Shown piece after piece: positions 3,740-34,659 of a DNA stretch of 64,000 bases. Position numbers and translations under genes: made by a program. This DNA comes from Phototrophicaceae bacterium (GTDB lineage: Bacteria; Chloroflexota; Anaerolineae; Aggregatilineales; Phototrophicaceae). Below the pieces are notes generated by a model that ran no database searches, was not told the DNA's origin, and was given only the letters and a program-made list of their open reading frames with translations. How positions within the stretch are numbered: position 1 is the stretch's first letter; every line of letters starts with the position of its first letter. The stretch is taken from NCBI GenBank assembly GCA_965203755.1, contig OZ241910.1:1309287-1373286 (forward strand), read 5' to 3'.

Positions 3740-4567
3740 ATGTTAAACGACGTCAGCATTTTACTTGGCGACTGCGCCCAAGAGCTCGCGCAGCTGGAGT
3801 CCGACTCGGCGCAGTTGATTTTCACCTCGCCGCCCTACGCCGACCAGCGCAAGAAAACCTACGGCGGCGTTCACCCTGACCACTATGTGGCCTGGTTTTT
3901 GCCGATATCAAGTGAATTGAAACGAGTTCTAAAACCGCGCGGCACGTTTATCCTGAACATCAAAGAAAAAGCGGTGAACGGCGAACGGCATACCTATGTG
4001 CTTGACTTGATCAAGGCTTTGCGCCGGCAGGGATGGCTGTGGACGGAAGAATTCATCTGGCACAAGAAAAATGCTTATCCCGGCAAGTGGCCCAACCGCT
4101 TCCGCGATTCATGGGAACGGCTGCTTCAGTTCAATAACGAGAAGCGATTCGATATGTATCAGGAAGAGGTGATGATTCCCGTCGGCGACTGGGCGCAAAC
4201 GCGGCTGCGAAATCTTAGCGAAACCGACCGCATCCGCGACGAATCCAGAGCGGGAAGCGGCTTTGGCAAGAATATATCGAATTGGGTCGGTCGCGGCATG
4301 GTTTATCCCACCAACGTCATCCACATGGCGACCGAAACCGCCAACCGCGGCCACAGCGCCGTCTTCCCGCGGCCGCTGCCGGCATGGTTCATCAAGCTGT
4401 TCACCTTGCCCGGCGACACCGTCCTTGACCCTTTCGCCGGTTCAGGAACGACTTTGTTCGCTGCCTGTGAGATGCGCCGCAAAGCGATAGGCATCGAAAT
4501 GGTGCCCGAATACGTGAAAGCCATCGAAGCGAAATTGAAACACCGCCAGCAGCGGCTGTTTTTCTAA
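3740..4567 (+). CDS. site-specific DNA methyltransferase, beta class (N4-C or N6-A), orphan
   Basis: Motif IV FTSPPY lies near the N-terminus and motif I LDPFAGSGTT near the C-terminus, with HSAVFP between them. SPPY favours m4C. No nuclease gene is adjacent. Confidence 0.85.
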   Translation: MLNDVSILLGDCAQELAQLESDSAQLIFTSPPYADQRKKTYGGVHPDHYVAWFLPISSELKRVLKPRGTFILNIKEKAVNGERHTYVLDLIKALRRQGWLWTEEFIWHKKNAYPGKWPNRFRDSWERLLQFNNEKRFDMYQEEVMIPVGDWAQTRLRNLSETDRIRDESRAGSGFGKNISNWVGRGMVYPTNVIHMATETANRGHSAVFPRPLPAWFIKLFTLPGDTVLDPFAGSGTTLFAACEMRRKAIGIEMVPEYVKAIEAKLKHRQQRLFF

Positions 4568-8516: not shown

Positions 8517-8545
8517 CATTCATATCCAGTTCATTGAGGAGCGCC

Positions 8546-9523
8546 ATGGCGACGGTCACAGCGACGGCGAACAGCAAGCAGCTTCGACTCAAGCTGCCTT
8601 CAGGCCAAACGCGCCGCGATGAATTTCTCAATCAATTACGCAGCCGCGGCAAACTCGCCTACAAACGTTATCTGGGGTCGCCCCTCCGTTACGCTGGCGG
8701 GAAAAGCCTAGCCGTCGGTTTTGTCATTGAACTGCTGCCAGAGCCCATGGTGAATCAGCTTGTTTCGCCATTTATAGGCGGCGGGTCGGTCGAGATCGCT
8801 TTAGCAAAGGAATTGGGAGTCAAGGTAATCGGTTATGATGTGTTTGACATCTTGGTGAATTATTGGGATGTGCAGATTAACCATGCACAAGCCTTATGCC
8901 ATCGCTTAGAACAATTCTCTCCCACGCGGGCAGCCTTCGCTTCGGTCAAGCAGCGGCTTAAAGCGCACTGGAACGGGGAAACCGTTTTGGATCGTTATGA
9001 TTTGGCGGCGCATTACTATTTTAATTCGAATACATCCTATGGCCCCCATTTTCTGGGCTGGCCATCTGATGTCTATTTGAACAGAAGGCGCTACGAGAAA
9101 ACGCTTGAAAAAGTGAGGACATTCAAAGCGCCGACTTTGTCTGTTCGATGCGCCGGCTTTGAGGAATCCATACCGCTGCATCAAAATGACTTTTTGTATT
9201 GTGACCCGCCTTACTGTCTTGAACAGGGGAAAACGTTTGCGGGCATGTACCCACACCGGAATTTTCCAATCCACCATCAAGGGTTTCGCCATGACTTGCT
9301 AAGAGACCTGCTGCTGTCCCACAAGGGCGGCTTCATTTTATCTTACAACGACTGCGAGATTATTCGGGACTGGTACGCCGACTGTCATATCTCAACTCCT
9401 GAATGGCAATATACCTTTGGACAAGGGGATACGCGGATAGGCATAAACAGACGGGACAGCAATGGCGGCAGTCACATCAAGAAATCGCATGAACTGCTGA
9501 TATGGAAATATCCCGATGCGTAA
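8546..9523 (+). CDS. Dam-like (D12 class, alpha) N6-adenine DNA methyltransferase, orphan
   Basis: RYAGGKS, SPFIGGGSVE (motif I) then LYCDPPY (motif IV), which is the alpha-class order. GAGGAG lies 4 nt before ATG 8546. Confidence 0.85.
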   Translation: MATVTATANSKQLRLKLPSGQTRRDEFLNQLRSRGKLAYKRYLGSPLRYAGGKSLAVGFVIELLPEPMVNQLVSPFIGGGSVEIALAKELGVKVIGYDVFDILVNYWDVQINHAQALCHRLEQFSPTRAAFASVKQRLKAHWNGETVLDRYDLAAHYYFNSNTSYGPHFLGWPSDVYLNRRRYEKTLEKVRTFKAPTLSVRCAGFEESIPLHQNDFLYCDPPYCLEQGKTFAGMYPHRNFPIHHQGFRHDLLRDLLLSHKGGFILSYNDCEIIRDWYADCHISTPEWQYTFGQGDTRIGINRRDSNGGSHIKKSHELLIWKYPDA

Positions 9524-9559
9524 AACCCGCTACAAGCTGCTCCTTCAAAGGTTAAAACC

Positions 9560-10504
9560 ATGCACCTGCTGTCCTTTGGCGAACTTCTGATTGACTTTGT
9601 GGCGCTGGAAATGGGCGTCGCGGTCGGCGATGCTTCTGGATTTATCAAAGCGCCCGGCGGCGCCCCAGCCAATGTCGCCGTCGCCGCCGCCAGACTAGGG
9701 TATCAAAGCGCGTTTATGGGCCAGGTGGGCGCCGACCCCTTCGGCAGATATTTGGCTGATATCCTCGCTGCCGAAGCGGTCAATATCGACGGCTTGTTAT
9801 TCTCACAGAACGCGCGCACCGCGCTGGCCTTTGTCGCCAACACCGCCGACGGCGACCGCAGCTTTATGTTTTATCGCCATCCATCAGCCGATATGCTGAT
9901 GAAACCCGCCGATGTCAATACCCAGCTGATTGACCAAAGCGCCATACTCCACTTCGGCAGCATCACCCTGATTCACGAACCAGCCAAATCGGCGCTGCTC
10001 AAAGCGCTGGCGCATGCTATCGACAGCGATACATTCATCTCTTACGACCCCAACCTGCGCTTGCCGCTGTGGGAAAGCGCGGCCGCCGCCAAAGCCGGTA
10101 TGCTCGCCGGGCTTGAGTATGCCAACCTGCTGAAAATCAGCGCCGAAGAATTGGAGTTCCTGACCGGCGGCGAAGATGTCCGCCCCCTGTGGCGCGACCG
10201 CACGGAGATAATCTGCGTCACTTATGGCCAGCGCGGCGCCGCCGTCCATTTGAAAGATGAGACCGCAATCAAACATAGTGGTTATGCGGTGTCAGCGCGG
10301 GATACGACCGGCGCCGGCGATGCTTTCGCGGCGGCGATGCTGATTGGCATTCTGGATTATGGCGATGATTATCAGGCGCGCTTGCCCGCGATTCTCGATT
10401 TCGCCAATGCTGTCGGCGCATTGACCTGCATCAAAGAAGGCGCGATTCCCTCACTGCCAACGATGGCCGAGGCGCGGGCCTTTTTGGCGGAACGCCGCGG
10501 TTGA
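9560..10504 (+). CDS. PfkB-family carbohydrate kinase (fructokinase/KDG-kinase-like)
   Basis: GGAPANVAVAAARLG and DTTGAGDAFAAAML are PfkB signatures. Confidence 0.85.
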   Translation: MHLLSFGELLIDFVALEMGVAVGDASGFIKAPGGAPANVAVAAARLGYQSAFMGQVGADPFGRYLADILAAEAVNIDGLLFSQNARTALAFVANTADGDRSFMFYRHPSADMLMKPADVNTQLIDQSAILHFGSITLIHEPAKSALLKALAHAIDSDTFISYDPNLRLPLWESAAAAKAGMLAGLEYANLLKISAEELEFLTGGEDVRPLWRDRTEIICVTYGQRGAAVHLKDETAIKHSGYAVSARDTTGAGDAFAAAMLIGILDYGDDYQARLPAILDFANAVGALTCIKEGAIPSLPTMAEARAFLAERRG

Positions 10505-10513
10505 ACGCCAGCC

Positions 10514-10849
10514 CTAGCTTGTCGGGTCAGGCTCGGGATTGAACCCCATCGGCGGCTTGGGCTGATACGGCACTTCTAAATGTTTGATGATGGCTAGCAG
10601 CATCGTGCGGTTTTCCTGAAGCATTGAACGATTCTCTTGAATCAGCACGCGATTCTCTTGAATCAGCACGCGATTCTCTTGAATCAACTTCCGATTCTCT
10701 TGAATCAGCGCACGATTCTCCTGAATGTTCTTTGCCATCGTCGGCAAGACCTGATCCATGCTGGTCATCAGTTTGTCTTGCGTATGGCGCAAGCTAAGAT
10801 ACTCTTGGTCAATGCGGTCGAAACGTATGTCGATAGTCGCCATGTGCAT
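10514..10849 (-). CDS. small coiled-coil protein with six tandem QENRxLI heptads
   Basis: 111 aa with QENRALI QENRKLI QENRVLI QENRVLI QENRSML QENRTML, encoded by 21-bp DNA repeats. TATAAT lies at 10883..10888 on the minus strand upstream. Confidence 0.6.
   Translation of the reverse strand: MHMATIDIRFDRIDQEYLSLRHTQDKLMTSMDQVLPTMAKNIQENRALIQENRKLIQENRVLIQENRVLIQENRSMLQENRTMLLAIIKHLEVPYQPKPPMGFNPEPDPTS
10608..10733. repeat. 6 x 21-bp tandem repeat (consensus cgattctcttgaatcagcacg) inside CDS 10514..10849
   Basis: Units were counted directly at 10608, 10629, 10650, 10671, 10692 and 10713. Units 2 and 3 are identical. Confidence 0.9.
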
Positions 10850-10990
10850 TCTTTCCTTATGATTTCACACTGTGATGTTACCATTATATTGGAGACGGCT
10901 GAAATTTTACAGGGGTTTGTCGTGCAGCATTGAACTGGAATTGACCACAGAGGACACAGAGCAATTCATAGGGCGGTTGAATCGCTCCTG

Positions 10991-11623
10991 TCAATCACCG
11001 GCCGGCGCCTGCTGATAAAGCAGTTTCGTACATACCGTTTCAATAAATCTTCTGGGGTCGTGCCAATAGCAGCCAATACAAGTCCCATTATAAATCTCGT
11101 CGCCAGCATATTGCGCGATGGGAAATCCAAGCCGGCGGGCATCATAACGCCGATCCGTTTCACGGCACCTTTTGCAGTGCGCGCGTTTGGCGTTATTGAC
11201 CGGTTTGGAAAACGCTTGAAAATCTTCTAATTCGACGCGGTTCGGGTCGCTTAGCCTTGGGTCGTCCAACCTGCCATCCTTATGGTCAATCTCAATTCCA
11301 CTGATGTCCAGCACAGCGCATCGCTTCTCTTTGAACTGTTTTCTGATCCGCGCCGGGATCGGCTTTCTGATCTCTACTTTCTTATACCCTTGCAACTCGA
11401 CGGCTGATATCGCATTGCCATCTTTATGTTTTCGTATGTTATATGCACGCGCAAGCGAGCCATCTCGGCGAACCCAATCCCCGCCGTTTCCAAAACGCAA
11501 TTTTTCATATCGCCCCGTAAATTCTTTGACAGGCACGATGCGGCTAAATCCCTCATTGTCCGGTTGAGCCAGTTCCAGGAACAAATCAGCCTTGCTGCCT
11601 TTTTTCGGTGTCCAGCGGCTCAT
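10991..11623 (-). CDS. HNH/beta-beta-alpha-Me type II restriction endonuclease candidate
   Basis: IEIDHKDGR...NNAKRAHCKRC...CIGC gives an HNH core plus CxxC...CxxC zinc ligands. Its ATG overlaps the MTase stop (ATGA at 11620..11623). Confidence 0.65.
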   Translation of the reverse strand: MSRWTPKKGSKADLFLELAQPDNEGFSRIVPVKEFTGRYEKLRFGNGGDWVRRDGSLARAYNIRKHKDGNAISAVELQGYKKVEIRKPIPARIRKQFKEKRCAVLDISGIEIDHKDGRLDDPRLSDPNRVELEDFQAFSKPVNNAKRAHCKRCRETDRRYDARRLGFPIAQYAGDEIYNGTCIGCYWHDPRRFIETVCTKLLYQQAPAGD

Positions 11624-12342
11624 CGCAGCCGCTCCAGCACGTTGTCGATATAGGCTTGGTTAATATCACAGCCAGCGAATCTCCTTTCAAGCGCCTGCGA
11701 TACAGCCGCCGTGGTACCTCCTCCCAAGAAGGGATCAACGATTAAATCACCAGGGTTGCTGTGAATTCGCACCAATTCGGCAAACAGTTTGTCTGGCTTC
11801 TGCGTCGGGTGTATTCGATTTCCGTTATGCCTTGGTATCGGATGGCGATAGACGCCGTTATGATATTTCGCATTGAAAGTTGGTTTGCCGCCCTTAACGC
11901 CAGCGACAGCGATTTCACGGCTGTTCGATAAGTAAGTTCGCTTGGAGTTGAGCGGCACCGGATTGGTTTTCTGCCATACAATCAGCCGCATCATAGAAAA
12001 TCCGGCGGCTTCCAAAGCGGACTTCAGCCGTTCGATCTTCCACAGATCATAAAACACAATGACTGTGCCGCCTTGGCGGAGGACGCGGTGACCTTGGACG
12101 GCTAAGGCCGATAAATCAATTTCGCAGTGATCCCACTTGCCAAAATCCATCGAAACCGCGAATCGCTTCACACTGCGTTTCCCAACGGATTGAAAACCCG
12201 TGGCGCGGCTTATCGCATAAGGCGGATCGGTAAGGATCAAATCAACCGCATCACTGTCAAACCCGCTTAAAAAATCTCGATAATCGGCGCATTCAATTCG
12301 GACTGCCCCTTCGCATATTGGGTCCAATGCCAGCTGTTTCAT
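11620..12342 (-). CDS. site-specific DNA methyltransferase, beta class (cognate M of the R-M operon)
   Basis: LILTDPPYAI (motif IV) then HPTQKP and VDPFLGGGTT (motif I). Translationally coupled to the downstream nuclease gene. Confidence 0.85.
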   Translation of the reverse strand: MKQLALDPICEGAVRIECADYRDFLSGFDSDAVDLILTDPPYAISRATGFQSVGKRSVKRFAVSMDFGKWDHCEIDLSALAVQGHRVLRQGGTVIVFYDLWKIERLKSALEAAGFSMMRLIVWQKTNPVPLNSKRTYLSNSREIAVAGVKGGKPTFNAKYHNGVYRHPIPRHNGNRIHPTQKPDKLFAELVRIHSNPGDLIVDPFLGGGTTAAVSQALERRFAGCDINQAYIDNVLERLR

Positions 12343-12435
12343 CTTTTACCCAATCAAACGCCCAAGCATTCCAGTAAACGCTTGAACAGCGTATACTGAT
12401 ATGGAAAGCCCTCGGGGTTTTCAATATTTTTGCGG

Positions 12436-12480
12436 TTTCCTGTGGCAGACTGGACTGCCAATCTCAACTGCCACAGGAAA
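12436..12480 (-). promoter_or_regulatory. 13-bp perfect inverted repeat (TTTCCTGTGGCAG/CTGCCACAGGAAA) in the leader of the M-R operon
   Basis: Arms at 12436..12448 and 12468..12480 with a 19-nt loop. The loop contains a second CTGCCA (12455..12460) that could pair alternatively with TGGCAG. Confidence 0.5.
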
Positions 12481-12494
12481 CTCCTGCACAAAAG

Positions 12495-12569
12495 CCATGA
12501 AAAAATTCATCGCCGCATAAAGCATACCCTGTTTTTATCTTCTTTGCAAGTCATGTCCGCCCCAATTCG
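12495..12569 (-). promoter_or_regulatory. promoter/leader element copy A (-35 TTGCAA, 17 bp, -10 TATGCT)
   Basis: -35 at 12544..12549 and -10 at 12521..12526 on the minus strand. About 75 nt aligns with copy B at 14033..14110. Confidence 0.55.
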
Positions 12570-12606
12570 TATGCGCCCGCCAACCTTGAAGAGGCAAACC
12601 CTGTCC

Positions 12607-14031
12607 TTATCCAGACATTCTTGCCCCGCGCCGCTTCCCGTATCTTGGCGGCAGCTTCAGCGGCTTGTCTTGCAGCAGATCTTCAATGCTGTAGCCTTGA
12701 ATGACCGGATAGGTTTCGTAGTCATCCGACCATGTTTCCTGGCTTCGCTGATTTTCGACAGTGCCCATTTGCCGGTCAAAGCAAACCATAATCCCGGCGA
12801 CCGCTTCCAGCCGGCGTACCGTTTCGCTAAGCGCTTTAACCGAGTCGGGGGTTACATTTCCGCCTTTGACTTGAATGATGACGTATTCCTCGTGGACTTT
12901 CCCCTTGCGAATAACATCCATTTCCATGACGCCATCAACGCCGCCATCCGCGCCTCGTTCGCCAGGATTCTTGTACATCCCATTAGCGCCGATAGCGCCG
13001 CAAACCCACTTTTCAAATTCAAACGGCTTATCGCTGGCAAGCTGTCGGGCTTCCTCGACCGTGGCCGGCGCGCCCCACATATAGATGTCGTCGGGTTTCA
13101 GATATTGGAAGTTATGGCGAATGCGCTCGCGTATTAAACCAGCGCTGAAGGGCGATATATCGATCCCAATCCATTGCCGGTTCAGCGATTCCGCCGCGTG
13201 AACAGTTGTGCCACAGCCGCAGAATGTGTCAAGCACCAAGTCGCCCGGATTGCTGGATGCTTTGATGACGCGTTCTAAAAGCGCGAGTGGTTTTTGCGTC
13301 GGATAGCCAAGCCGTTCTTTTGAAACATTGATAACCGCTTTAATGTCAGTCCAAACATCGCGCACATACACATCAGCATAATATCTGCCATCCTCATCCT
13401 CATTTGTAGTAAAAAATGGCTTGTCATAGTAAATTCTTTCAGTTAAAGGATTATGCAGCGTATTGTTAGATTTCCCATAACAAAGAATAACATCATGTTT
13501 ACGCGGCCACCTCTTTTTGCTTACTCCTCCTGTTCGATACCCCCACACAATTTCATTCCTGAAGTTTTTATATCCAAACACAGCATCCATAGCCAGCTTG
13601 AGATAATGCCCAGCAGTCGGGTCACAATGCAGATAAATGCTGCCCGTCTCTTTCAGCACGCGGCGCATCGCCCGCAGTCGCAGTATCATATTCATCAGAT
13701 AGGCCGCCAAACTCGATCTGCCCTTTGCCCGGCCTGTTTGTTCGACCTCTTGTGCAAATTTGACAATGGCCGCCAGCGAACGGGTAAGCGGATTTTTTTC
13801 TAATCTTCGCAAATTATCCGCATCTTGGGCCGTCCATTCCCACGTATCATTGAATGCTTCGGCCGGGCGCAGCGACCTGTCCTTGTTTTTGAAGGGCAAG
13901 CTGTAATGGCTGTTGGAATTGAACGGCGGGTCAAGATAAATCAAGTCGATGGACTGGTCAGAGATATACTCGTTCATAATGTCCAGGCAATCCCCGGTGT
14001 ATAACGCGCGCTTCACATCATCTCCAAACAT
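12607..14031 (-). CDS. beta-class DNA methyltransferase fused to C-terminal Mrr-like PD-(D/E)xK nuclease domain
   Basis: YLDPPFNSN (IV), YPTQKPLALLERVI and LDTFCGCGTT (I), followed by GADGGVDG...VIIQVKGG, which is Mrr_cat-like (D...QxK). Confidence 0.8.
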   Translation of the reverse strand: MFGDDVKRALYTGDCLDIMNEYISDQSIDLIYLDPPFNSNSHYSLPFKNKDRSLRPAEAFNDTWEWTAQDADNLRRLEKNPLTRSLAAIVKFAQEVEQTGRAKGRSSLAAYLMNMILRLRAMRRVLKETGSIYLHCDPTAGHYLKLAMDAVFGYKNFRNEIVWGYRTGGVSKKRWPRKHDVILCYGKSNNTLHNPLTERIYYDKPFFTTNEDEDGRYYADVYVRDVWTDIKAVINVSKERLGYPTQKPLALLERVIKASSNPGDLVLDTFCGCGTTVHAAESLNRQWIGIDISPFSAGLIRERIRHNFQYLKPDDIYMWGAPATVEEARQLASDKPFEFEKWVCGAIGANGMYKNPGERGADGGVDGVMEMDVIRKGKVHEEYVIIQVKGGNVTPDSVKALSETVRRLEAVAGIMVCFDRQMGTVENQRSQETWSDDYETYPVIQGYSIEDLLQDKPLKLPPRYGKRRGARMSG

Positions 14032-14032
14032 T

Positions 14033-14110
14033 CCACATGGAAGAATTCATCGTAGCATTAAGCATAGCCTGTTTTGATCTCCGCTGCAAGTCATGTCCGC
14101 CCCCGATTCG
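14033..14110 (-). promoter_or_regulatory. promoter/leader element copy B (-35 TTGCAG, 17 bp, -10 TATGCT)
   Basis: -35 at 14084..14089 and -10 at 14061..14066 on the minus strand. It lies immediately upstream of ATG 14031 and is homologous to copy A. Confidence 0.55.
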
Positions 14111-14233
14111 CGCTTTATTTTGCATGCTGTGATATGCTTATGCTAACCATGGCCGCTGGATTAGGCTGGGCGTTTTGCTTGCATCGCCCAAAAGTTATGC
14201 TACTATTTAATTGACAGTGAGCGAGAAAATAGC

Positions 14234-15865
14234 ATGGCCGAACTCAACTTCAAGAACCGCACGCTCTATCACGGCGACAACCTCGACTTCCTGCGCGGCA
14301 TGAACAGCGAAACCGTGCATCTCATCGCCACCGACCCGCCTTTCAACAAGAACCGCGATTTCCACGCCACGCCCGACAGCCTGGCGAAAGGCGCCAGTTT
14401 CAAAGACCGCTGGTCATGGGAACGCGATGTGCATGAGGAATGGACCGACAGCATCATCGACGACTGGCCCGACGTTTGGGAAGTGATTACGGCGGCGCGG
14501 GCGGCTTATGGCGACGATATGGGCGCGTTTTTGTGCTGGCTGGGCGTGCGCCTGATGGAAATGCACCGCGTCTTGCGGCCAGACGGGAGTATCTATCTGC
14601 ACTGCGACTCGACGGCGAGCCATTACATCAAGGCGATGATGGATGCGATTTTCGGCTGGAAAAACTTTTTCAATGAGATTACTTGGAAACGTTATGCTGT
14701 TCATAGTTTGAGTGAGAACGGTTTTGACAATGTTGTTGACCATGTTTTTTTCTATGCCAAAGACTATAAAAAAGTGAGTTTCAGAAAAATTTACGGAGAA
14801 GTAGATGAAGACACGCTGTCGTCGCGTTTTCCCCACATTGAACCTGAAACCGGCAGGAGATTTCAGCACATTGCGTTGGAACAGTCATCAAACCAATCAA
14901 GTGCAGGTGAAATCCGTTCCATACAAGGTAGAACGGTGATTAGTAAAATAGGGTGGAGATGGACACAAGAGACATTTGACGAAAGATTGTCTCATAATCC
15001 ACTTTTGATTTACTGGACAAAAAATGGCAGACCGCGATATAAGAAATATGCTGATGAATATGCAGGGACGCCATTAGGCAACATCTGGACTGATATAAAA
15101 TACTTGGCGGCTGGAGATGCCGAACGCACCGGCTACCCGACGCAAAAGCCGCTCGCTCTCTATGAACGCATCATCAAGGCATCCTCGAACGAAGGCGACC
15201 TCGTGCTTGACCCCTTCTGCGGCTGCGCCACCACAACGATTGCCGCCGAAAGGCTGGGGCGACAGTGGGTGGGCATGGACATCTGGAACGAAGCGCATCC
15301 CGTCACGCTGAAGCGGCTGGCGGAAGAGGGCATGGTGACCGCCGACAGCGAACACAAGCAGATGTTCCCGCATATCGTCCATTACGAAACCGCGCCGCCC
15401 GTACGCACAGATGACAATGAGATGGCCGCGCCGACCCTTGAGCTAAGAATCCAGCGCCCGGTGGAACCTTGGCAGCGACTGACGCACAAGCAAATGGTGC
15501 GCGTGCTAGCCTTCGCGCAGCAGTCAAACGGCGGCGTCATCTGCGCCGGCTGCGGGCGCGTGCTGGAAGTCGAGTTCATGCAGCTTGACCACATCACGCC
15601 CAAAGCCGACCGCGGCGAAAATCACATCCTCAATCGCATCCTGCTCTGCGGCCCCTGCAATCGCCGCAAGCGCGACAATTTGACCCTGCGCGGTCTGCTG
15701 CGCGAAAACAGGAAGAAGACAGTCGGCTGGATGAAGGACGAAGACATGGCGAAGCTGATACAGGAACATGCCCGCGAAAAAGCGGAATGGGTGCGCGATC
15801 ATTTTGACAGCGCCGAGTGTCAGGCGCTGATTAAAGGCGGCGCAAGCCCCCGCCTTACTGCTTAA
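14234..15865 (+). CDS. beta-class DNA methyltransferase fused to C-terminal HNH nuclease domain
   Basis: ATDPPFNKN (IV), YPTQKPLALYERII and LDPFCGCATT (I), followed by CAGCG...LDHITPKADRGENHILNRILLCGPCNRRK (HNH). Confidence 0.8.
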   Translation: MAELNFKNRTLYHGDNLDFLRGMNSETVHLIATDPPFNKNRDFHATPDSLAKGASFKDRWSWERDVHEEWTDSIIDDWPDVWEVITAARAAYGDDMGAFLCWLGVRLMEMHRVLRPDGSIYLHCDSTASHYIKAMMDAIFGWKNFFNEITWKRYAVHSLSENGFDNVVDHVFFYAKDYKKVSFRKIYGEVDEDTLSSRFPHIEPETGRRFQHIALEQSSNQSSAGEIRSIQGRTVISKIGWRWTQETFDERLSHNPLLIYWTKNGRPRYKKYADEYAGTPLGNIWTDIKYLAAGDAERTGYPTQKPLALYERIIKASSNEGDLVLDPFCGCATTTIAAERLGRQWVGMDIWNEAHPVTLKRLAEEGMVTADSEHKQMFPHIVHYETAPPVRTDDNEMAAPTLELRIQRPVEPWQRLTHKQMVRVLAFAQQSNGGVICAGCGRVLEVEFMQLDHITPKADRGENHILNRILLCGPCNRRKRDNLTLRGLLRENRKKTVGWMKDEDMAKLIQEHAREKAEWVRDHFDSAECQALIKGGASPRLTA

Positions 15866-33858: not shown

Positions 33859-34659
33859 TCAGGGCTGATTTGCCCTTTGTTTTATCCCCCACAGCGCATA
33901 GTTCAATTTATCAATTCGCTTATCGATGATATCGCAATAGACGGGATTCAACTCAAAGCCAATACATTTTCTATCAGAACCCAAGCAAGCCGCTATGGTT
34001 GTTCCCGAACCGCAAAATGGGTCTAACACCATGCCATTCGGCGGACAGCTTGCCTTGACCATTCTTTCGATAATCTCCAAGGGCTTTTGCGTCGGATGAT
34101 CTTCGCGCTCTTTATGCTGACGGTGCAGGCGCGAAACACTCCACACATCTTTTGGATTGCAGCCCTTCTCCAGCCACTTGCTGCCGACAAAGACAGCCCG
34201 CGTTCTTGCCTTTTTTGTCTGCTCGTCATACGGGATTCGCACCGCGTCAATGTCAAAATAGTAATTTTTGCTTAGGGCAAAATAGCCGATGGTGTCATGC
34301 ACCGACGAAAACCGTCGGGTCGACCCGCCCATGCTGGGGACGCGCCGGTCCCAAATAATTTCATTGATCATCATTAACTTTTTCTTCATAAAATAGAATA
34401 TCTCCGGCGAGCGCCGCCAGGTCGCGAAGATGTACAGGCTGCCGGTTTTCTTTAACTTGGGGATAACCAGATCGACCCATTCGATTGTCCAGTCCACCAG
34501 TTCTTCAGCGCTTTTCATATCCGAATCATTGCCATAATCTTTCCCCAATCCGTATGGCGGATCGGCAATCACAAGGTCAACTGATTCATCGGGTATCAGA
34601 TGGGCATGGGACAAGAAATCCTTGTTGTGCAGTTCGTATGTCATCATAGGCTGATACAC
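33859..34659 (-). CDS. site-specific DNA methyltransferase, beta class, orphan, low-GC
   Basis: VIADPPYGL (IV), HPTQKPLEIIERMV and LDPFCGSGTT (I). GC is visibly below the flanks. Confidence 0.85.
   Translation of the reverse strand: MYQPMMTYELHNKDFLSHAHLIPDESVDLVIADPPYGLGKDYGNDSDMKSAEELVDWTIEWVDLVIPKLKKTGSLYIFATWRRSPEIFYFMKKKLMMINEIIWDRRVPSMGGSTRRFSSVHDTIGYFALSKNYYFDIDAVRIPYDEQTKKARTRAVFVGSKWLEKGCNPKDVWSVSRLHRQHKEREDHPTQKPLEIIERMVKASCPPNGMVLDPFCGSGTTIAACLGSDRKCIGFELNPVYCDIIDKRIDKLNYALWGIKQRANQP

Follow-up and report, generated by a model that had tools for sequence, protein, structure and literature searches.

Fused methyltransferase-nuclease proteins in a Phototrophicaceae genome as candidate single-chain restriction-modification enzymes

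Two neighboring genes of opposite orientation in a Phototrophicaceae bacterium (Chloroflexota; assembly GCA_965203755.1, contig OZ241910.1, positions 1,309,287 to 1,373,286; this whole stretch of 64,000 nucleotides is hereafter called the window) each encode a DNA methyltransferase that continues into a further C-terminal domain. The question raised by these genes, here named A and B, is whether such proteins both modify and cleave DNA and whether the two genes belong together. A preliminary description of the locus had offered several readings, among which that of two self-contained modification-plus-cleavage enzymes turned out to be the best supported, as the domains appear intact, the recognition segments swapped and a conserved partner lacking. 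We suggest that A and B are each probably an autonomous single-polypeptide restriction-modification enzyme because recognition domains have been swapped, no conserved partner or helicase accompanies the genes, several copies may occur per genome, and two different nuclease folds are found on one scaffold.

Domain architecture of the two proteins

Over their methyltransferase parts, and nowhere else, A and B proved to be paralogous (BLASTP, 35% identity, E = 6e-50), the C-termini being unrelated, which agrees with the earlier view of two divergent paralogous methyltransferase genes ending in different nuclease tails. Both open reading frames (ORFs), all the shared motifs quoted there (DPPFN, IYLHCD, the segment beginning with GYPTQKPLAL, and FCGC.TT) and the two tail signatures (GADGGVDG and IIQVKGG in A; CAGCG, LDHITPK and LLCGPCNRRK in B) were recovered. 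Pfam searches (gathering cut-offs of 26.7 bits for PF01555, 21 bits for PF04471 and 21.4 bits for PF01844) matched the methyltransferase family in both proteins, Mrr_cat in A and HNH in B, all over the cut-offs, and fixed the domain borders (Table 1). The start of A is uncertain by 5 codons, its closest database homologue being called at 469 aa.

In beta-class methyltransferases, motif IV (D/S-PP-Y/F) is N-terminal, the recognition domain lies in the middle and motif I (FxGxG), which binds S-adenosylmethionine (AdoMet), is C-terminal. Both proteins follow this order, with DPPF at residues 34-37 and motif I at residues 270-274 in A (FCGCG) and 328-332 in B (FCGCA), and the match of B to PF01555 extends over residues 28-356 (E = 6.5e-42, 144.4 bits). 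The DPPF motif, like DPPY, is taken by us to indicate N6-adenine methylation. The N-terminal two-thirds of A and B are accordingly annotated here as a predicted beta-class N6-adenine methyltransferase into the middle of which a recognition domain is inserted. AlphaFold2 (AF2) models (predicted local distance difference test, pLDDT, 84.8 and predicted template modeling score, pTM, 0.84 for A; 81.7 and 0.77 for B) had their best PDB fold match in EcoP15I Mod (4zcf, E = 2e-16 for A; E = 3.7e-16 for B), followed in both cases by Helicobacter pylori Mod (6k0w) and then M.RsrI, CcrM and M.MboIIA, although these whole-model searches are dominated by the methyltransferase part.

Family alignments of 121 sequences each were built for the A-type and B-type proteins. 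The preliminary description had allowed that catalytic residues might be absent on proper alignment; they were found to be kept, the methyltransferase and nuclease residues being present in 121/121 sequences at most positions and in 119-120 at six. In A, the methyltransferase residues D34, P35, P36, F270 and G272 are invariant in 121/121, and the Mrr signature, as defined for LlaGI and Mrr (PMC2790908), is complete (motif I, E338/E340; motif II, D362-G-G-V-D366, with the expected hydrophobic residue ahead of the second Asp; motif III, Q387-V-K389) and essentially invariant, with a single E338D. In B, the HNH residues C437xxC440, D452-H453, N467 and C472xxC475-N476, which comprise the D-H, N and N of the beta-beta-alpha-metal fold and both CxxC pairs of the zinc site, are invariant in 121/121, and a profile search of the PDB aligned the HNH segment residue by residue with the catalytic core of the Cas9 HNH domain. 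Searched in this way, the C-terminus of B matched only the generic HNH cores of Cas9 and IscB, and that of A gave nothing significant by sequence. The linker that precedes the HNH domain of B is largely predicted to be unstructured, yet P389, R391, D393, R408 and W413 in it are invariant over 54 sequences. Both C-termini are nuclease folds with intact active sites, of the Mrr-type PD-(D)QxK kind in A and of the HNH kind in B. Since two unrelated nuclease folds stand at the same position of the scaffold, selection may have favored a cutting module as such.

Catalysis in the Type IV enzymes Mrr and McrA likewise resides in Mrr_cat and HNH domains, and the preliminary description had considered that the methyltransferases might be coupled to modification-dependent nucleases, in which case the fused methyltransferase would have a separate role. 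This appears very improbable. Type IV sensing relies on separate readers (winged helix, SRA, EVE and others; PMC12707154), whereas Pfam and the AF2 models reveal only methyltransferase, central segment, nuclease and linker in A and B, and no modification-reader domain in either protein. Moreover, the same Mrr-type motif is found in the host-protective enzyme LlaGI (PMC2790908), and a protein in which a methyltransferase is tethered to a nuclease specific for methylated DNA would be a danger to the host that carries it.

Exchange of recognition domains

In both families, the central segment between the conserved parts of the methyltransferase is hypervariable and rich in indels (76-167 aa). The mean identity in the A-type alignment is 35% in the centre, which ranges from 77 to 162 aa in this family, vs 65-85% in the flanking core; in the B-type alignment it is 16% vs 85-86%. 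The insert of B is much larger than that of A, and the two recognition domains are unrelated. When B was compared with the close homologue P0131, identities of 97, 95, 97 and 99% were found in the N-terminal core, the C-terminal methyltransferase motifs, the linker and the HNH part, respectively, as opposed to 12% in the middle (79 aa in P0131 vs 144 aa in B). A second example is provided by locus L144, in which two B-type genes of 477 and 542 aa stand in tandem (8522-11629) between PfkB kinase and GCS2 ligase genes. The nucleotide identity between the tandem copy and B is 88-90% on both sides of a replaced central segment, and the tandem pair appears to be a clear case of duplication followed by replacement of the recognition domain. 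Exchange of recognition domains within a fixed scaffold changes specificity in MmeI-family, Type I and Type III enzymes (PMC4081073).

Distribution of the two families

The architecture had been regarded as unusual, which did not hold in the sense of rare: full-length searches with A and with B returned at least 8000 candidates each. All of the 120 matches listed for A were full-length, and most were labelled PF01555 plus PF04471; all of the 120 listed for B carried PF01555 plus PF01844. An exhaustive search with the tail of B (residues 352-543, E <= 1e-10) gave 224 clusters at 50% identity, the match being C-terminal wherever the protein was full length and a methyltransferase standing in front of it in 9 of the 10 cluster representatives tested. 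Used alone as query, the C-terminus of A returned for the most part short pieces of proteins from this fusion family and revealed no domain context that was new. Both fusions are therefore very common, with thousands of full-length homologues, the majority of which come from Chloroflexota genomes assembled out of sponge metagenomes.

A genome scan with the tail of A as query yielded 212 relatives, the best 80 of which were used for all counts of A-type loci given below. Almost all of these 80 loci come from metagenome-assembled genomes of Chloroflexota (Phototrophicaceae, Aggregatilineales, Anaerolineae, Caldilineaceae and Dehalococcoidia), and a few from Acidimicrobiia, Alphaproteobacteria, Thermodesulfobacteriota and taxa named Poriferihabitaceae or Porisulfidus. 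In a large metagenome collection, six clear B-type matches (five full-length and one clipped by the contig end) all belonged to LXNI01 or MKWU01, metagenomes obtained from Mediterranean sponges (Horn et al. 2016; Slaby et al. 2017; PMC5099237, PMC5649159). Sponge symbionts were reported in these studies to be enriched in restriction-modification systems, and the methylase-nuclease family was not reported there. Several copies may be present in one genome: a 3.15-Mb contig holds one A-type and three B-type genes (P0051, P0128, P0130 and P0214), and one Aggregatilineales chromosome at least three A-type and two B-type genes. Mrr-type fusions with 35-42% identity are also encoded on plasmids of Candidatus Megaera, an uncultured symbiont, and of the cultured strain Mesorhizobium japonicum MAFF303099. 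A cultured Pseudomonas genome encodes a more distant fusion, with 26-28% identity in its tail, and every one of these proteins is annotated as a plain methylase. In some distant Mrr-type members the methyltransferase core is nearer to B than to A. We also considered a phage origin and rejected it, as viral contigs contained only distant relatives of the A tail (at most 31% identity) and no B tail.

Genomic context and independence of the two genes

The preliminary description had presented A and B as two alternative versions side by side. As a functional unit, this pairing did not survive a comparison of synteny. Over 14 kb, the window shows 92% identity to the ENA scaffold L002; the nearest relatives that bear a name are genome bins of Phototrophicaceae. 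One genome of this family, OZ251572, has a 92%-identical A downstream of the small methyltransferase and ICEA genes and no B nearby. Conversely, L144 has a 93%-identical orthologue of B in the same slot between the PfkB and GCS2 genes, next to the second B-type gene described above, and no A; the block at 10507-14190 of the window, which contains a small ORF, an ICEA endonuclease gene, its methyltransferase gene and A, is missing from L144. B-type genes are solitary among metabolic and housekeeping genes in L145 and L146, the genes likewise stand alone in most of the 80 loci, and no partner gene is conserved. Because the closest relatives of A and B lack the pair and the content of the slot is variable, A and B are two independent cassettes in a variable restriction-modification island, and their head-to-head arrangement is incidental.

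It might be argued that A and B form one two-gene system, either with methyltransferases that protect against each other's nuclease or as a heteromer, considering that they are adjacent and divergent, share a 202-bp control region and have paralogous methyltransferase cores, and that both types lie within 4-8 kb of each other in a few loci (L010, L040 and L069). However, B is lacking within 10 kb in 76 of the 80 A-type loci, the 92%-identical A of L001/L003 is among the copies without a nearby B, the block with A behaves as an indel relative to L144, and the recognition domains of A and B are unrelated. The two-gene unit was rejected from synteny, and we give it hardly any credence.

The absence of a specificity, helicase or Res subunit, as claimed earlier, was borne out: none of these genes is present within about 10 kb of A and B in the window, and no helicase or Res gene was seen in L002 or the other loci either. 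What had been overlooked is that a small but complete Type II system adjoins A (see below). A PADLOC scan returned generic Type II, Type III and orphan methyltransferase models only and no named defense system.

Variable occupancy of the slot among close relatives, together with the low GC content of the island (0.49-0.52 in the A-B region vs 0.55-0.60 in the flanks), could also suggest mainly selfish mobile cassettes, whose nuclease would cut genomes or alleles that lack the methylation of the cassette and in this way aid its maintenance or spread. Close homologues are found across unrelated phyla of the same sponge habitat (Acidimicrobiia, Alphaproteobacteria and Thermodesulfobacteriota), and HNH domains are frequent in homing endonucleases. 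However, there is no integrase, transposase or repeat boundary beside the window genes, and the viral contigs hold distant relatives only. Selfish behavior is also compatible with restriction-modification, as such systems generally behave as addictive elements. As the main explanation of A and B, selfishness seems quite unlikely, and we retain autonomous restriction-modification enzymes as the preferred one.

Homopolymer tracts in relatives of A

About 24 of the 80 A-type loci contain a poly-G tract (G8-G17) at about codon 100 (Table 1). In about 20 of the 80 A-type loci, the gene is broken into a first ORF of about 100 aa, coding for the N-terminus, and the remainder; in 14 of them the break falls at A residues ~97-108, with runs such as G16 in L006, G17 in L044 and G15 in L025 at the frame break. 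Most of the split genes examined have a single disruption, located at the tract, and are otherwise intact. The tract is in frame in three loci (L013, L017 and L031), and GGG or GGGG stands at this point in 14 of 120 intact family proteins. In about ten further A-type loci, a poly-C run (C9-C21) is located at or just upstream of the 5' end, in some of them right behind an upstream start codon; in L010-L012 it lies inside a leader ORF of 13 codons, 60-120 nt before the methylase start (e.g., MMILPPPPPENMF in L012). G/C runs of at least 9 are 19-fold denser in A-type genes than in 1.3 Mb of flanking DNA. Although single lengths in long-read assemblies may contain errors, the tracts are real, because they were found in independent assemblies, including contigs with SPAdes- or MEGAHIT-style names (L015 and L073).

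Tracts of this kind are the usual layout for slipped-strand phase variation, which is known from the mod genes of Type III systems and from further restriction genes in host-adapted pathogens (PMC12707154). The poly-G tracts suggest that a fused methylase-nuclease of sponge-associated Chloroflexota varies in phase by strand slippage. A frameshift at either tract removes the methylase and the nuclease together, which is a safe off-switch for a fused enzyme. The window itself has no homopolymer run of 8 or more in A, B or the intergenic region, and A keeps only an interrupted relic at the poly-G spot (GGCCGGGCAAAGGGC / GAACAAACAGGCCGGGCAAAGGGC). Among B-type loci, a G10 run stands ahead of the gene in one, L087, at a distance of 58 nt from the start.

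Two observations on such tracts may be added. Two paralogous A-type genes of one Dehalococcoidia genome (L021, 8063-9404; L022, 8061-9406) carry a 1.3-kb insertion at the poly-G tract; the insertion codes for a DDE transposase (PF01609) and is bordered by a G run at each end. In L144, a G16 run (16159) is located in an unrelated 123-aa gene of unknown function, so that long homopolymers are not exclusive to methylase-nuclease genes in these genomes.

Comparison with known systems and proposed mode of action

Type IIC/IIG enzymes (such as MmeI, Eco57I, BpuSI and BcgI) resemble A and B in combining nuclease and methyltransferase in one chain, often without a partner, in presumably using one recognition module for both activities, in module exchange and in occurring in several copies per genome (PMC4081073). 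Their own build is different: an N-terminal PD-(D/E)xK nuclease, a gamma-class (NPPY) methyltransferase and a C-terminal or separate specificity module (PMC4081073), whereas A and B have a beta-class DPPF methyltransferase first, an internal recognition domain and a C-terminal nuclease, which is of the HNH type in B. This difference from the classical topology had been pointed out before and is upheld here. The nearest precedent in layout is BtgZI, described in a review (PMC4081073) as having its methyltransferase at the N-terminus and, at the C-terminus, a variant PD-(D/E)xK domain with Q for E (D...QxK), the same order and chemistry as in A. The methyltransferase of BtgZI is alpha-class in this description, whereas that of A is beta-class and Mod-like.

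The Mod subunits of Type III systems (EcoP15I, 4zcf; H. pylori, 6k0w) are the best structural matches (E about 1e-16) and share the beta-class order, a variable recognition domain at the centre and, behind motif IV, a helical insertion; mod genes also frequently vary in phase through repeat tracts. However, Type III systems need a separate Res subunit consisting of a helicase-type ATPase and a nuclease, whereas in A and B the nuclease is fused to the methyltransferase and Res is lacking, which implies cleavage without ATP. The nuclease signature of A (E, D-x-G-x-D, Q-x-K) is identical to that of LlaGI, a Type ISP enzyme, and of Escherichia coli Mrr (PMC2790908). LlaGI consists of an N-terminal nuclease, a helicase and a gamma-class methyltransferase, and A has no helicase; Mrr has a winged-helix reader and no methyltransferase and cuts methylated DNA, and A has no such reader. 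We file A and B as a variant of single-chain restriction-modification enzymes outside the Type IIC/IIG, Type III, Type ISP and Mrr families.

In the proposed mode of action, the central recognition domain of each protein would read one short DNA sequence for both activities. Sites in the host would be methylated and hence protected, and unmethylated foreign sites would be cut nearby by the tethered nuclease, methylated ones being spared. Considering that there is one nuclease site per chain, dimerisation is probable, and cutting of both strands would probably occur after two chains have dimerised, as for Mod dimers and Type IIS/IIG enzymes. A and B would act independently and presumably have different specificities, since their recognition domains are unrelated. 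In relatives of A, the poly-G and poly-C tracts would switch expression by disabling methylase and nuclease jointly; the tract-free copies in the window would be fixed in the on state.

Do the C-terminal domains cleave DNA?

Several points weigh against autonomous restriction-modification enzymes. The names given to both families in the databases are only "DNA methyltransferase" or "site-specific DNA-methyltransferase", and a full-text literature search found no paper on this architecture and no characterised homologue of either family (in a paper on Metamycoplasma, an HNH gene is merely adjacent to a methyltransferase gene and not fused to it). A distant Mrr-type clade (Pseudomonas and Mesorhizobium) has YQFQWW as motif I and S/NxK as motif III, and the Pfam model of an inactive restriction endonuclease scores about equal to or above Mrr_cat in it, suggesting that some distant Mrr-type fusions may not cleave. 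No switch tract was found inside the B-type gene in the 12 loci examined. Furthermore, if the recognition site were asymmetric, a single methyltransferase would leave one daughter duplex unmethylated after replication; self-protection would then need an extra rule, for example, a requirement for two sites, which is pure inference on our part.

Some of these points would also fit orphan or regulatory methyltransferases whose nuclease-derived tail no longer cuts and has become a module for DNA binding or oligomerisation, in the manner of the accessory domain at the C-terminus of CcrM. All sources annotate a methyltransferase only, A itself has a weak match to the inactive endonuclease family PF22722 (E = 1.1e-3, under the cut-off), the distant relatives have the altered motifs mentioned above, and phase-variable methyltransferases are established as epigenetic regulators in phasevarions (PMC12707154). 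However, the clades to which the window genes belong keep the catalytic residues of the nuclease, including metal-binding and general-base residues that would be dispensable for a pure binding module, and the scaffold has acquired nuclease folds of two unrelated kinds at one and the same position, which points to selection for cleavage itself. For A and B, a non-cutting tail is therefore considered unlikely, but it may still apply to the distant clade with YQFQWW and S/NxK.

Provided that A and B are indeed single-chain enzymes of restriction and modification, a broader claim may be put forward tentatively. They could represent a large unrecognised class with a Mod-like scaffold, interchangeable Mrr and HNH modules and swappable recognition domains, multi-copy in marine-sponge symbionts and switched by homopolymers in the Mrr branch, which we see as quite possible though short of probable. 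If both activities are present, the proteins would show a new build plan for single-chain restriction enzymes, with the beta-class methyltransferase first and the nuclease last. To our knowledge, no HNH-bearing Type IIC enzyme has been characterised, and B would, as we believe, be the first HNH version of a single-chain restriction enzyme. The hundreds of naturally swapped recognition cassettes on near-identical scaffolds may serve as raw material for finding or engineering specificities. Since such proteins pass as plain methyltransferases in standard annotation pipelines, the number of restriction systems counted in Chloroflexota and in sponge microbiomes would be too low. The homopolymer switches of the Mrr branch point to restriction or methylation being turned on and off in organisms other than host-adapted pathogens too, and non-pathogenic symbionts of animals would then have a phase-variable system of restriction or epigenetic control. 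The interest of this locus lies in the two families, which are abundant and hidden under the label of methyltransferase, and not in this particular pair.

The island around A and B

Table 1. Features of A and B, of their surroundings and of homopolymer tracts in A-type relatives (window positions unless a locus is named)
Feature	Coordinates	Strand	Basis
Small Type II system adjoining A: methyltransferase and ICEA/NlaIII-like endonuclease	10991..12342	-	ORFs, Pfam
Gene A: beta-class (DPPF) methyltransferase with C-terminal Mrr-family nuclease, 474 aa	12607..14031	-	ORF, Pfam, AF2 model
A, Mrr_cat nuclease domain, residues 335-417, FEFEKW + GADGGVDG + QVKGG	12781..13029	-	PF04471, E = 4.8e-6, 27.1 bits
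A, hypervariable centre, presumed target-recognition domain, residues ~161-238	13318..13551	-	Alignment
A, methyltransferase domain, residues 28-294	13150..13950	-	PF01555 (N6_N4_Mtase), E = 1.8e-44, 152.8 bits
Divergent intergenic region, 202 bp	14032..14233	.	No homopolymer tract, no convincing promoter consensus
Gene B: beta-class (DPPF) methyltransferase with C-terminal HNH nuclease, 543 aa	14234..15865	+	ORF, Pfam, AF2 model
B, hypervariable centre, presumed target-recognition domain, residues ~151-294	14684..15115	+	Alignment
B, conserved linker between methyltransferase and HNH, residues 353-430	15290..15523	+	Alignment, AF2 model
B, HNH domain, residues 437-481	15542..15676	+	PF01844, E = 1.5e-8, 35.1 bits
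B, conserved C-terminal helical tail, residues 485-534	15686..15835	+	Alignment, AF2 model
Poly-G tract in loci L006, L007, L008, L015, L018, L020, L025, L029, L030, L032, L044, L051/L052, L059, L073	about 9200-9420 in each locus; 397 in L015		
Poly-C run in loci L047, L063, L045, L048, L023, L050, L010-L012	9084 (L047), 9016 (L063), 8881 (L045), 8923 (L048), 8925 (L023), 9425 (L050), 8833-8927 (L010-L012)		

A promoter scan of the intergenic region (14032-14233) found sites no more frequently than expected by chance. On the other side of A, the small Type II system comprises a beta-class methyltransferase (11620-12342, 240 aa), whose gene has a 4-nt overlap with that of an ICEA/NlaIII-like restriction endonuclease (10991-11623, 210 aa; PF05315, E = 1.5e-48). 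The ICEA family includes H. pylori IceA1 and NlaIII, and a CATG-type specificity of the window system seems likely to us. A linkage of this Type II system to A was also observed in L001/L003 and L005, with a different gene order; in the syntenic scaffold L002, the ORF of the small methyltransferase is split in two and the endonuclease is intact.

Between the PfkB gene and the ICEA endonuclease gene, a 111-aa ORF on the minus strand (10514-10849) has no Pfam match and contains about seven tandem heptads of the form (L/M)(I/L)QENRx (e.g., LIQENRV); it is kept in L002 and lies in the block missing from L144. Three further methyltransferase genes of the window are located at 3740-4567 (+), 8534-9523 (+) and 33859-34659 (-) without an adjacent endonuclease gene, two encoding small beta-class N6_N4 enzymes and one (8534-9523) a D12/Dam-like enzyme, which brings the total to six DNA methyltransferase genes in 64 kb.

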